Source: Magnetococcales bacterium DC0425bin3 (GTDB lineage Bacteria > Pseudomonadota > Magnetococcia > Magnetococcales > DC0425bin3). Taken from it: DNA of 64,000 nucleotides. Where the stretch lies: assembly GCA_002753665.1 (NCBI GenBank), contig PEAP01000004.1:1516-65515 (forward strand). Reading direction: 5' to 3'. How positions within the stretch are numbered: position 1 is the first letter of the stretch; every line of letters starts with the position of its first letter. The notes beneath the pieces were generated by a model, which was not told the DNA's origin, made no database searches, and saw only the letters and a program-made list of their open reading frames with translations. This document shows, piece by piece, positions 11,706-63,575 of the stretch. The translations under genes were made by a program, and so were the position numbers.

Positions 11706-12852
11706 CGCTCCCTTGGCCGCAGCCATGCCGCCGCTTCCGGAAGAGATCGCGCCGCAAACCGGACGGCGTTATCGCAAACGCTGCATCCTGTTTTTCATGG
11801 TGACCGCCCTGGGCGCCCTGGTGGCCGAGGGCTGGGCCATGTGGCATCTGCTGGGTTCGGAGTATGGGGCGTCCTGGATCGGTATCGTCCCTCCGGCCGT
11901 GGCCCATCTGGTGGTGTTGAAGATCCTGGTGACCATTGCCGTCTATTTTCACAACCGGCCGGAACATTGTTCCCGGAACATGTTCATGCTGCTGGCCGTG
12001 GCCACAGCCTTCATGGGTGTGCTGGGTATCCTGGGAACCGTGATCGCCTATCTGCTGCATCTGGAATACAACCAGGAGTCGGTCTCTTTCGAGGAATGGT
12101 ACGCCTCCCTGTTTCCCGAAGAGGAGCGCGGGGCCTCCCGGGAGCTGATGGAGCGGTTGCAGGCAGCGGGGGAGGAGGGGGGCTCCCTGACCCCTTTCAC
12201 CGATGTGTTGACCTACGGCACCCAGGCCCAGAAGCAGGCCATGATCGCTTTGATCAGCCGGGATTTTCGCCCCCAGTTCGCCCCGGTGCTGAACCAGGCC
12301 CTCAACGATCCCGACAACGCCGTGCGGGTGCAGGCCGCCACCGCCGCCACCCATGTGGAAAACCGCTTCATGAAGAAGTCCATGGAGTTGGAAGAGACCG
12401 TGGCCCGCAACCCGAAGGATGACAAGCAGTTGCTTGCCCTGGCCCGCCACTGCGACGACTATGCCTTCTCCGGCCTGCTGGAGGCCGAACGGGCCCGGGA
12501 ATACGGCGACAAGGCCCTGGCGGCCTACCGGAAATACCTCACCCTGCGTCCCGACGATGTGGCGGTGCGGGTGGCGGTGGGACGCCACCTGGTGCGGAGC
12601 CACCGGCTGGAGGAGGCGGCGCGTTATCTGGAAGAGGCCCTCCGGGGGGAGAAACCTTCCCCCCAGCTGGCGTTGTGGTACATGGAGACCCTCTATCAAC
12701 TCCGGCGCTTCGAACCCCTGGAGGAGCTGGCACGCCGGTATGGGCAGGACTTTACCGCCGCGGCGGGGTTTCCCGTGCAGGTGGTCGAGGCGGTGGGGCT
12801 GTGGGCCGGCGCCACCAGGGCGGCAACCCCTCAGCCGGCGGGGTACCGATGA
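11698..12852 (+). CDS. pelE: PelE-like inner-membrane TPR protein
   Basis: 384 aa. GTG 11698 overlaps the pelD stop by 8 nt. Two or more N-terminal TM helices, then TPR-like helices. Stop TGA 12850-12852 lies inside repeat copy 1. Confidence 0.65.
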   Translation: MADAPLAAAMPPLPEEIAPQTGRRYRKRCILFFMVTALGALVAEGWAMWHLLGSEYGASWIGIVPPAVAHLVVLKILVTIAVYFHNRPEHCSRNMFMLLAVATAFMGVLGILGTVIAYLLHLEYNQESVSFEEWYASLFPEEERGASRELMERLQAAGEEGGSLTPFTDVLTYGTQAQKQAMIALISRDFRPQFAPVLNQALNDPDNAVRVQAATAATHVENRFMKKSMELEETVARNPKDDKQLLALARHCDDYAFSGLLEAERAREYGDKALAAYRKYLTLRPDDVAVRVAVGRHLVRSHRLEEAARYLEEALRGEKPSPQLALWYMETLYQLRRFEPLEELARRYGQDFTAAAGFPVQVVEAVGLWAGATRAATPQPAGYR

Positions 12853-12912
12853 CAGTCGCTCTGCGACAGTCATCGGTGGAGGGTGGAGGGTGGCCTCCCC
12901 CATCCATCAAAG
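12844..12912 (+). repeat. Two-hairpin GGTGGAGGGTGGAGGG-box repeat, copy 1
   Basis: TACCGATGACAGTCGC-TCT-GCGACAGTCATCGG, then TGGAGGGTGGAGGG-TGGC-CTCCCCCATCCATCAAAG. Confidence 0.95.
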
Positions 12913-12913
12913 T

Positions 12914-12982
12914 TACCGATGACAGTCGCTCTGCGACAGTCATCGGTGGAGGGTGGAGGGAGGCCTCCCCCATCCATCAAAG
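12914..12982 (+). repeat. Two-hairpin GGTGGAGGGTGGAGGG-box repeat, copy 2 (tandem with copy 1)
   Basis: Identical to copy 1 except T->A (12891 vs 12961). Period 70 bp. Confidence 0.95.
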
Positions 12983-13921
12983 CTGGCTGTCCAACAGCAA
13001 CCGTAGCCCGTCGCGGAACACCACCCGGGCGCTCACCCCCAGCTCCCGGACGGCCCGCTGGGGATTGCCCACGGAGGTGCGGATATCGCCGCTGCGGGGC
13101 GGTTGGTGGACCACATCCACCCGGCGGCCCGCCAGTTCGAACAGGGTGTGGGCCAGTTGATTGATGGATGTGGCCTGGTTGGTGCAGACGTTGAAAATCC
13201 GCGCATGGGGTTCGGTGGCCCGCTCCATGGCCGCCAGCAGATGGGCCACCACGTCGGCTACATAGACGAAATCCCGGGTCTGCTCGCCGTCGCCGAAGAT
13301 GGTGAGGGGACGCCCGGCCAGGATGCGGTCCACGAAGATGGAGATCACCCCGGAATAAGGCGAGGAGGGATCCTGGCGGGGGCCGTAGACGTTGAAGAAG
13401 CGCAGGCCCACGTTGGGCACGCCGTGGACCCGGGCTGCCACCCGGCCATGGAGTTCCGAGCCGGCCTTGTCGGCTCCGTAGGCGGTCAGGGGCTGGATCG
13501 GCTCCCACTCCACCAGGGGGACGTTGGGATTGTCGCCAAACACCGCCGCCGAGGAGGCATAGACTACCGGCACCGGTGGGGTCTGCCGGGCAGCGTTGAA
13601 CACCAACACGCTGCCGGTCTGATTGGCGCGGTGGGTGCCGGCCCAGTCCTCGTTGGACCTCTGCACCGAGGCCACCGCCGCCAGGTGAAAGCAGCCGTTC
13701 ACCCCGGCCATGGCCTGGTTCACCGCCGTCGCATCACCCACGTCGCCGCGGATGAACTCATGGGGTCCCCGGACGTTCTCCACATGCCCGGTAGACAGAT
13801 CGTCCAGGATCCGCACCCGGTGGCCCCGCGCCAGGAGGGCGTCGGCCAGGTGGGAGCCGATGAAGCCGTAACCGCCGGTGATCAGGTACAGGCCCGGTTG
13901 CTTGAAGGTGTTTTTCATCAT
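12977..13921 (-). CDS. NAD-dependent sugar epimerase (SDR), candidate PelX-type UDP-GlcNAc/Glc 4-epimerase
   Basis: 314 aa. Has ITGGYGFIGSH (GxxGxxG) and YGADK (YxxxK). Antisense between pelE and pelF. Stop codon lies in the TCAAAG tail of repeat copy 2. Confidence 0.85.
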   Translation of the reverse strand: MMKNTFKQPGLYLITGGYGFIGSHLADALLARGHRVRILDDLSTGHVENVRGPHEFIRGDVGDATAVNQAMAGVNGCFHLAAVASVQRSNEDWAGTHRANQTGSVLVFNAARQTPPVPVVYASSAAVFGDNPNVPLVEWEPIQPLTAYGADKAGSELHGRVAARVHGVPNVGLRFFNVYGPRQDPSSPYSGVISIFVDRILAGRPLTIFGDGEQTRDFVYVADVVAHLLAAMERATEPHARIFNVCTNQATSINQLAHTLFELAGRRVDVVHQPPRSGDIRTSVGNPQRAVRELGVSARVVFRDGLRLLLDSQL

Positions 13922-61718: not shown

Positions 61719-61840
61719 CGTTTCAGCAATCAAATAGCAATCATATTGGAAGCGGGGCCGGTAGACTTGCCTGGGGCGCAGGACGGGGAGCAGGGCCTGC
61801 AGAACGTTCAAAATGGCCTGGGGGGGTCCAAGGGTTTGTC

Positions 61841-63409
61841 ATGGAGACCAATATGGGACGAACATCCGACCAGGCTGCGGGAGCGTTTCTCCACTTGTGG
61901 AGCCTGTTGGCTCTGCTTCTGACCCTGGCCGCCATGGCCCAGTGGTATTTCATCCCCATCCACCATGATGTGGCGTGGAGTCTGTTCGCCGCCCAACGGA
62001 TGCTGGAAGGGGGGCGGTATGTGTCCGATATTTTCGACATGAACCCTCCCCTGATCTACCTGCTGTTCATGCCAGGTCCCGCCCTGGAAAAGCTGCTGCC
62101 TCTGGATTCCTACCAGATCACCGTCTATTGGATCGGTCTGTTGGTCCTGGTCAGCGCAGTCCTTTGGTACCCGCAACTGCTGAGGATCTTGCAGGGCAAA
62201 CGCCGCCTGGCCGGCTGGGTCACCCTGGGTCTGGCCCTGACGCTGATGCTGGGTCCGGGATTCGATTTTGCCCAGCGGGAACATTTTATCGTCATTTTGA
62301 TCATGCCCTGGCTCGTGGGTTTTGCCGGAGAAGACCCGGCCGGCGCTTCGCGGGTGACCGTCGGCTCTTGTCTCGCCATGGTGTTCGCTGCCCTGGGATT
62401 CGCCATCAAGCCCTATTATCTGCTCCTGCCCGCTGCCCTGCTGTTCATTCAAGTGGTTCGACGCCGCAGCGTGGCCCCCCTGCTGGATCCGCATCTGGCC
62501 ATTCTGACCCTCACCGGGTTGCTCTATCTGGGGTTCGCAGCGGTCTTCCATCCGGAATTCTTCGCCATGGTCAAAATGACCCGGGAGACCTATTTCGGGT
62601 TGGATCAGCCGGTTCGGAATCTTTTCGACCATCCGTTATGGGTGACCGTCCTGGTGCCTGCGGCAGCCTGGTTTCTTCCGCAGCTTCGGCCGGTTCGGAG
62701 GGTAAGCCTCCTGTTGGCCGCGGCCGGGATTCTGGCCGTGATCCCCTATTTCATCCAGCTCAAAGGTTGGTCGAATCACCTGCTTCCCGTGTTTCTACTC
62801 CTGCAGGCCAGTCTGATGGTCATGGCCCTGGAGGCGATCGGTCGGCTGGGGGTCACAGAAGACCGGAGGACTGTGCGTTTCGGTTTGGCGGGGCTGTTGC
62901 TGCTGTTGGTCTTCCTGCTGACCGTCCATCCAAGCGGCGGCAAGCACTTTTTCCGGAGCCTGGGTCCCGAGTGGCGTGACAATGAGGTGACCCAAGCCAT
63001 CAGGACCCTGGCGCCCGGCGCCAATCTGGCGCTGTTCTCCACCGATATTCATCTCATGATGAGCCTCTTCTATTATTCGGGCGGGGGTTTGGGGCAACGG
63101 TGGTGTACCCTGTCGGTGGTTCCCGGCATCTTGAAACTGCGCGCAACCGGCAACCAGGAACTCGCCGACCATTACAGTCGGATGATCCGTCGCATGATGG
63201 TCGAGGATCTGGAACGCTACCGTCCGGCACTGGTTTGGGTGGACATCGCGCAGGAAAAATATCGCATAGGACAGGGATTCGATTATATTGATTTTTTTAT
63301 GGAAAATCCGGAATTCATCAAGACCTGGAGCCATTACACCCTGTTGAGCAGCGGACCGAAATGGTCAGTGTATGTTCGAAGGCAATTCCTCAACCCCCTT
63401 TCATCATGA
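61841..63409 (+). CDS. Polytopic membrane protein, GT-C (ArnT/PMT-like) glycosyltransferase candidate
   Basis: 522 aa from ATG 61841. About 10-12 TM helices followed by a soluble C-terminal domain. The upstream part of the ORF-track entry runs through the tRNA and is spurious. Confidence 0.45.
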   Translation: METNMGRTSDQAAGAFLHLWSLLALLLTLAAMAQWYFIPIHHDVAWSLFAAQRMLEGGRYVSDIFDMNPPLIYLLFMPGPALEKLLPLDSYQITVYWIGLLVLVSAVLWYPQLLRILQGKRRLAGWVTLGLALTLMLGPGFDFAQREHFIVILIMPWLVGFAGEDPAGASRVTVGSCLAMVFAALGFAIKPYYLLLPAALLFIQVVRRRSVAPLLDPHLAILTLTGLLYLGFAAVFHPEFFAMVKMTRETYFGLDQPVRNLFDHPLWVTVLVPAAAWFLPQLRPVRRVSLLLAAAGILAVIPYFIQLKGWSNHLLPVFLLLQASLMVMALEAIGRLGVTEDRRTVRFGLAGLLLLLVFLLTVHPSGGKHFFRSLGPEWRDNEVTQAIRTLAPGANLALFSTDIHLMMSLFYYSGGGLGQRWCTLSVVPGILKLRATGNQELADHYSRMIRRMMVEDLERYRPALVWVDIAQEKYRIGQGFDYIDFFMENPEFIKTWSHYTLLSSGPKWSVYVRRQFLNPLSS

Positions 63410-63507
63410 TGGCCATGCGCCGATCATGATGGGGAGAGGCATCCTCGATGGCCAATCTCCCTGACCCATGCTAGATTTTGCTCGCCGGTTTCCCCCTCTT
63501 TCCTGCT

Positions 63508-63575
63508 GCCGAGCAAGTCGCGACGCGACAGTCATCGGTGGAGGGTGGAGGGTGGTTTCCCCCATCCATCCAAAG
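63508..63575 (+). repeat. Two-hairpin repeat, copy 9
   Basis: GCCGAGCAAGTCGC-GAC-GCGACAGTCATCGG, then TGGAGGGTGGAGGG-TGGT-TTCCCCCATCCATCCAAAG. Lies 15 nt upstream of ATG 63591. Confidence 0.9.

Follow-up and report, generated by a model that had tools for sequence, protein, structure and literature searches.

What kind of element is a short repeat that recurs among the genes of an uncultured bacterium and folds into two hairpins: mobile DNA, a structured RNA of the host, or a site bound by one of its proteins? The question is posed by a 64-kb stretch of chromosomal DNA (the window) from the uncultured magnetotactic-type Magnetococcales bacterium DC0425bin3 (assembly GCA_002753665.1, contig PEAP01000004.1, positions 1,516 to 65,515), which contains numerous units of a previously undescribed two-hairpin repeat of about 69 bp. 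Our analyses suggest that the units are probably a lineage-specific, non-coding and modular family of short palindromic repeats, of the kind represented by repetitive extragenic palindromes (REP) and miniature inverted-repeat transposable elements (MITE). This reading is based on their intergenic bias, their independence of orientation, their division into sub-families, the occurrence of partial and tandem derivatives, a genic copy that maintains the reading frame, and hairpins that are preserved by compensatory changes. Our confidence in the enzyme that would be responsible is lower than in the class of element.

Units of two dissimilar hairpins

An earlier note on the window had described nine copies of the repeat, and sequence checks bore out the coordinates and strand of every one. 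We extended the window by 8.5 kb upstream and 9.4 kb downstream using record JADFWZ010000003.1 (GCA_015233965.1), in which it occupies positions 24629-88628; the resulting 81.9-kb composite has a G+C content of ~65%, is 89% coding and displays positive GC skew throughout. The 16-mer GGTGGAGGGTGGAGGG, from the G-rich arm (G-arm) of the second hairpin, occurs 13 times with three mismatches or fewer against 3.4 expected, a number reached in none of 100 shuffles. A covariance model (R1), built from an alignment of the eight full copies and the two-helix structure given by RNAalifold, and run with filters off, assigned 73-88 bits (E ~1e-14 to 1e-17) to those eight copies and 35 bits to the half copy at 23054. 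Across the composite R1 identified 15 units at 13 loci, comprising ten full units, four of hairpin 2 only and one of hairpin 1 only, or about one locus per 6-7 kb. The list of nine copies was therefore correct in its members but incomplete, since it lacked a hairpin-1-only derivative at 33129-33186 and five units lying just outside the window. Below, the nine copies are labelled c1 to c5 on the plus strand and c6 to c9 on the minus strand, in order of position.

A full unit is ~69-72 nt long and consists of two modules, H1 and H2, each an imperfect palindrome of 30-36 nt. H1 forms a hairpin of 13-15 bp with conserved ends, ACCG(N)TG...CA(N)CGGT, a GTCGC/GCGAC top and a middle that is variable yet paired. 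H2 is a hairpin of conserved sequence in which the G-arm and a C-rich arm, (G)GAGGGTGGAGGG-loop-CCCCCATCC, are followed by a ATCAAAGT tail. All full copies fold into two adjacent hairpins both as RNA (-25 to -44 kcal/mol) and as single-stranded DNA, and for the four copies tested in the latter form the z-scores lay between -3.6 and -6.7 on the element strand, and between -2.7 and -6.7 on the complementary one. The stem described in the earlier note for hairpin 1 is thus present, but it is longer than was supposed, because the conserved ACCG...CGGT ends pair too. Among the pairs of arms quoted for that hairpin, GACAGTCGC/GCGACAGTC carries a central A·A mismatch, but the claim that pairing is kept through compensatory changes stands.

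Pairs were counted on a model-derived alignment of ten distinct sequences, with 500 shuffles and structures slid by 1-3 columns as controls. Standard pairs fill 91.9% of cells, compared with 87.6 ± 1.0% in shuffles and 47-57% in the slid controls. Both sides of a pair have changed at six of the 15 pairs of helix 1, in 11 cells, whereas slid structures give three such pairs at most; the shuffles attained the number of pairs in 2/500 cases and the number of cells in 0/500. Variation in hairpin 1 therefore preserves structure, as had been proposed, with covariation above both the shuffled and the slid controls. Several changes are common by descent among only ten distinct sequences, the GCCGG stem top of c6 and of the unit labelled L2a being one example, so that helix-1 covariation amounts to an estimated ~5-6 independent events, a genuine signal of modest size.

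Hairpin 2 behaves differently: its sequence is nearly invariant, in agreement with the earlier description, and helix 2 displays no covariation in the alignment of ten sequences. The 15-bp register first assigned to it is possible, with 12 Watson-Crick pairs, one G·U and two mismatches, but minimum-free-energy (MFE) folding and RNAalifold prefer shorter, bulged registers of 9-11 bp, for example GGGUGG-A-GGG / CCC-CCAUCC. In the RNAalifold register the A-to-C changes of c9 fall at unpaired positions, and its G·U becomes G-C.

Placement of the units relative to genes

Ten of the 13 loci are mostly intergenic, compared with 11% non-coding DNA in the composite (binomial P = 5e-8), and the units account for ~10% of all intergenic bases. 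The earlier note had placed eight copies in intergenic gaps and c4 within the 3' end of an open reading frame (ORF); c4 is indeed translated, but c9 lies inside the ORF called for a DAHP synthase, the start of which is probably miscalled. Where transcription is plausible in one direction only, sense and antisense units number three each.

At five loci the 3' end of a gene faces a unit's CAAAGT end at a distance of no more than a few bases, and each of these genes has a stop codon that overlaps the unit's final 1-7 nt. At three of them (the methyltransferase gene at 46607, the spermidine-synthase-like gene and an ABC ATPase gene) the TGA is formed by TG from the flank and the complement of the terminal T; at the other two it lies inside CTTTGATGG (the epimerase gene at 12977 and the GGDEF-EAL gene at 23086). 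The hairpin-2-only fragment at 65274-65298 makes a sixth such locus, where the CAAAGT end is 36 nt from the stop of a B12 radical-SAM gene. The 3' flank is CA at 6/11 loci (binomial P = 3.5e-5 against background), a dinucleotide that may mark a target preference or equally belong to the element itself.

The plus-strand units begin with a head-to-tail tandem pair. The first member, c1 (12844..12913; R1 77 bits), is a full unit whose 5' TACCGATGA includes the TGA stop of a TPR gene (11698-12852); the second, c2 (12914..12983; 85.7 bits), is also full, shares 97-99% identity with c1, and holds in its terminal CATCAAAG the TGA stop (12977-12979, minus) of the convergent epimerase gene. The unit c3 (23054..23092) has hairpin 2 only, preceded by a degenerate partial G-arm (R1 35.5 bits for 23027-23092), and its 3' end contains the stop codon (23086, minus) of the GGDEF-EAL gene. 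The hairpin-1-only derivative (33129..33186, plus; R1 18.8 bits, E 0.02) starts 5 nt past the stop of a Redoxin gene and reads TTACCATGAAAGTCGCG...GCGGCTTTCATCGAT, with an internal 12-nt duplication and the tail ...GATCGAAAT. The full unit c4 (46539..46607; 87.5 bits) encodes the final ~31 residues of a radical-SAM/SPASM ORF, in whose 364-residue product the SPASM domain extends to residue 322, while the convergent methyltransferase gene obtains its TGA stop (46607-46609) from the unit's terminal T together with the flanking CA. The last of this group, c5 (63507..63576; 77 bits), is full and in sense orientation with respect to a B12-binding radical-SAM gene, whose start lies 14 nt beyond the end of the unit.

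All four minus-strand copies in the window are full units. The unit c6 (47685..47756; 80 bits) lies in sense orientation with its end 16 nt before the methyltransferase start codon; c7 (48730..48799; 73 bits) occupies the divergent intergenic region between an ankyrin gene and a ParA-like gene, and c8 (53890..53958; 83 bits) that between ArgJ and a gene of 147 aa. The fourth, c9 (61079..61148; 82 bits), carries a GGCGGG variant of the G-arm and lies within the called N-terminus of the class II DAHP synthase (59714-61204, minus), of which residues 19-42 are translated c9. The start deposited for this gene is probably ~48 codons too far upstream, because the Pfam domain begins only at residue 53; a GTG preceded by AAGGAAG occurs ~20 nt after c9, which would thus probably lie ~20 nt upstream of the true start. 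With this start corrected, c5, c6 and c9 all end 14-20 nt upstream of start codons, and the Shine-Dalgarno (SD) sequence lies outside the unit each time.

Sequence flanking the window supplied four more loci, which we give in window-equivalent positions. These are a near-consensus minus-strand unit at 70652-70721 (87 bits); a decayed minus-strand unit at 68889-68958 (L002 17037-17106; 44 bits); the hairpin-2-only fragment at 65274-65298, also minus-strand and detected by R1; and a head-to-tail plus-strand pair at -4700 to -4605, likewise detected by R1, the second member of which is hairpin 2 alone. The decayed unit forms a clean in-frame insertion of 23 aa (NSMDGGSLPPLFPSADRDATCTV) in a spermidine-synthase-like membrane protein of 933 aa, where it occupies a loop that joins predicted membrane segments.

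Intrinsic termination was considered as a role for the units and rejected, because a T-run follows none of the units, whichever strand is read, and canonical terminators stand separately from them. The ankyrin-repeat gene has a canonical intrinsic terminator (47789-47762, minus) with a 12-bp stem and T7, and c6 starts right after the T-run; the tRNA-Val gene (61601-61675) also has its own terminator. In the two stretches scanned (46400-49000 and 60900-63700), no terminator-like call fell on any of their five units.

Distribution and origin of the family

The suggestion that the repeat belongs to no named family was upheld, since tRNA-Val alone passed an Rfam gathering threshold in the window; in E-value mode the tandem pair returned only generic miRNA-hairpin models, far below thresholds. 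A strict pattern for the hairpin-2 core has no match among 185,579 GTDB species representatives. A relaxed pattern has at least three in GTDB, two being chance-like single hairpins in metagenome-assembled genomes (MAGs) of Thermomicrobiales and Nitrosocosmicus, and one occurring in the Magnetococcales MAG nWRX1bin3 (L010 1129-1214). There, a single hairpin-2-like motif (GAGGGTGGAGGGAACGCCCCCCATCC; R1 30.8 bits) stands behind a longer, unrelated stem, between two divergent paralogous genes for PiT phosphate transporters. This weak match could be a distant relative of the H2 module or a chance match, and it is the only possible outside relative among the matches listed. The hairpin-2 pattern found one chance-like match in JGI metagenomes, on a low-GC contig, and none in viral contigs, while blastn with the tandem pair found no match in plasmids and phages. 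Against a collection of 5.8 billion proteins, a profile of the six-frame translations of ten copies produced one true match, P0121, an 89-aa ORF on a 5.2-kb NCBI contig, and a single-sequence six-frame query nothing at E <= 10; such a protein search is a poor tracer for a translated repeat of 23 aa.

Among relatives, one NCBI MAG protein matches the product of the ArgJ gene (52556-53773, minus) at 100% identity, and the next best ArgJ reaches only 67%. A covariance-model search of the ArgJ loci of five other Magnetococcales MAGs (~96 kb; ArgJ identity 65-67%) did not find the family, and returned only weak, generic two-hairpin matches. The spacer upstream of ArgJ that contains c8 is 214 nt long, compared with 147-154 nt in four relatives, and is thus 60-67 nt longer; as a comparison with an empty site, the alignment with these four is too diverged to define an insertion point. 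Two of the MAGs, L006 and L005 (GCA_015231175.1 and GCA_015229045.1), have multi-hairpin intergenic repeats of their own (L006 11252-11430, 18864-19208 and 20126-20390; L005 9494-9842 and 13284-13750), which are partly common to both and not homologous to the family in the window. Among them are a tandem array of three 115-nt units and a two-hairpin unit spaced at 86 nt.

The structural hallmarks of several classes of repeat are absent, as the earlier note had observed. The ends of the units match at only 3-8 of 16 positions in all registers tried, leaving no terminal inverted repeat (TIR), and there is no consistent target-site duplication (TSD), the best flank matches being 0-4 nt long with inconsistent offsets and sequences. 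Spacing of 1-40 kb, mixed orientations and the genes between copies are likewise unlike a CRISPR array. A classical MITE, that is, a deletion derivative of a DDE insertion sequence (IS) mobilised in trans through its TIRs, would also be small, non-coding, dispersed and intergenic; but these ends and flanks, together with the lack of a plasmid or phage match that would reveal a parent IS, make this origin highly improbable.

The variation among units does have the character of a mobile repeat. Dispersed copies are 64-89% identical in pairwise comparison, and only the tandem pair c1/c2 is near-identical. Sub-families are defined by common derived stem variants (c6 and L2a; c4, c7 and c8; c1, c2, c5 and c9), and there are two head-to-tail duplications (c1/c2 and L3a/L3b) besides the single-module derivatives. 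The closest known systems include the REP/REPIN-RAYT systems of Pseudomonas and enterobacteria (RAYT, REP-associated tyrosine transposase), in which short (~20-40 nt) imperfect palindromes fold as single strands, are extragenic, dense (about one locus per 6-7 kb in the composite here), occasionally clustered and family-specific to a lineage, lack TIR and TSD, and retain a hairpin between conserved ends through compensatory changes (PMC3116915). A REPIN, however, is two inverted REPs in one long hairpin, whereas the present unit has two different hairpins in fixed order and forms head-to-tail tandems, and its dispersed copies are diverged, none being identical. Membership of REPIN/RAYT is not established: the inverted-doublet architecture is absent, and the search for a cognate RAYT gene, usually flanked by the repeats in such systems, covered the 82 kb.

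Other systems resemble the units in part. The palindrome-associated transposable elements (PATEs) derived from IS200/IS605 also lack TIR and TSD and have a hairpin near each end, and they may share a one-sided fixed flank, the terminal T and CA giving TGA on the other strand at 6/11 loci here. Elements of this origin insert without duplication beside a fixed tetra- or pentanucleotide on one side. An IS200/IS605-type model would suit the absence of TIR and TSD and the possible one-sided flank preference, but it would be a poor fit to hairpins that are unrelated in sequence and to the lack of replication-strand orientation bias, and no TnpA or parent IS was identified in the 82 kb. BOX elements of Streptococcus pneumoniae are comparably modular and variable in content (here, H1+H2, H2 alone, H2-H2 and H1 alone), with a stable predicted fold, intergenic positions, both orientations and no identified mobilising enzyme; they differ in having no sequence relation to the units, another host phylum, longer modules and a boxB copy number that varies inside a fixed A...C frame. 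Rickettsia palindromic elements (RPEs) can occur in frame within coding genes and be translated, as are the 23-aa insert and the radical-SAM C-terminal tail here; RPEs are 100-150 bp and often genic, whereas genic copies of this family are exceptional (~2-3 of 13 loci).

On the REP/MITE-like reading, the units would have spread as selfish DNA through self-copying, probably by a mechanism that recognises the folded single strand and conserved sequence, in the manner of the Y1/HUH transposases of RAYT and IS200/IS605 type. Insertions that damaged genes would then have been purged by selection. The present copies, being 64-89% identical, would be old, and kept or tolerated as stable hairpins, with stop codons and short C-terminal tails for neighbouring genes as side effects; occasionally, units would duplicate head-to-tail, drop one module or land in frame within a gene.

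Several observations weigh against this reading. The copy count covers the 81.9 kb, and one copy on another contig. Pfam gene calls and scans disclosed no transposase domain among the called genes of 82 kb, and mobilisation is purely inferred for that reason; nor is there any sign of recent activity in the composite, where no identical dispersed copies were seen. Tandem units are direct and not inverted as in REPINs, and the H1 and H2 hairpins differ from each other. The ends of IS608-type elements carry hairpins that are similar to each other. Approximately half of the loci point each way (six plus-strand, seven minus-strand) despite the uniformly positive GC skew, which is a misfit with the replication-linked orientation bias of IS200/IS605. 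Finally, the strand with the G-arm first folds better as RNA in 9/10 copies, by 3.3 kcal/mol on average (Wilcoxon P = 0.008), because of conserved G·U pairs, including one in helix 2 in 9/10 copies; this predicted asymmetry and the conserved G·U pairs leave room for a strand-specific function.

That function might be sought in a cis-acting RNA of untranslated regions, selected by the host, in which the double hairpin stabilises mRNA against exonucleases, or in which hairpin 2, with its two GGAGG motifs resembling SD sequences and its CCUCC arm resembling an anti-SD, modulates translation. This SD and anti-SD mimicry, like the G-quadruplex potential that the earlier note saw in the G-arm, is speculative. 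Such a cis-acting RNA would account for the better-folded strand and its G·U pairs, for the sense orientation of c5, c6 and c9 just upstream of start codons, and for the five loci exactly at gene 3' ends. It is nevertheless unlikely, given that sense and antisense units are equal in number where transcription is unambiguous, that each gene following c5, c6 or c9 has an SD of its own, external to the element, that no Rfam family corresponds, and that the unit is not conserved in the orthologous region upstream of ArgJ in relatives; moreover, units that have lost a module, duplicated in tandem or inserted in frame within a gene behave in a way typical of mobile repeats. Marginally less likely again are two further readings: that the unit is a hairpin-guided element that homes to gene ends, inserting at or next to TGA and restoring the stop, as the stop-codon overlaps might suggest, or that hairpin 2 is a free-standing functional module found beyond this genome, as the one similar motif in another Magnetococcales MAG might. 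We regard it as improbable that the units are dispersed sites to which a protein of the host binds (for instance gyrase, a regulator or a nucleoid-associated protein), with hairpin 2 as the recognition site and hairpin 1 as a cruciform structural element. The conservation of hairpin 2 without covariation, its four occurrences alone, the similar motif between divergent PiT transporter genes in another Magnetococcales MAG and the independence of orientation would all suit a double-stranded site; but no protein presents itself as a candidate, the genes beside the units bear no functional relation to one another, the closest relatives lack the family, and the imperfect, strand-asymmetric stems, in which G·T on one strand is A·C on the other, are unlike a palindromic operator in double-stranded DNA.

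Other repeats and the significance of the family

Three observations made alongside concern other sequences. A second, unrelated repeat family of ~130-170 nt has copies at 38090-38240 (plus) and 61270-61460 (minus), which are ~76% identical with a 37-nt indel and share the exact core GTCGCAGAATGGCCATCCATGG; one of them is situated in the gap from the DAHP-synthase start to tRNA-Val, and the other belongs to a low-GC region that encodes sulfotransferases. This region (36000-40000; 54% G+C against ~65%) was considered as a mobile element and rejected, for it encodes sulfotransferase and arylsulfotransferase-like proteins beside B12-binding radical-SAM genes and is a glycan or secondary-modification cluster. 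In another Magnetococcales MAG (L011 7031-7234), ~17 copies of a 12-nt tandem repeat, ACCTGGTCGGTT, occur within a hypothetical gene of 383 aa.

The two-hairpin family comes from a poorly sampled lineage, the nearest public relative having an ArgJ of only 67% identity, and a search of the literature for RAYT, REP or MITE in Magnetococcus or Magnetococcales found nothing relevant. Magnetococcales genomes carry differing, lineage-specific multi-hairpin intergenic repeats. In practical terms, the units confuse gene calling, giving rise to spurious small ORFs, to a probably false N-terminus on DAHP synthase and to a repeat-encoded tail at the C-terminus of the radical-SAM protein, and they can break MAG assemblies. 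The association with stop codons is the one feature worth following up; if targeting underlies it, this would make an interesting and low-cost strategy for insertion, and with either homing to gene ends or a free-standing hairpin-2 module the unit would go beyond a passive REP-like element. REP/RAYT-like biology would extend beyond the Gammaproteobacteria, where it is best studied, if the family has a cognate Y1 transposase.

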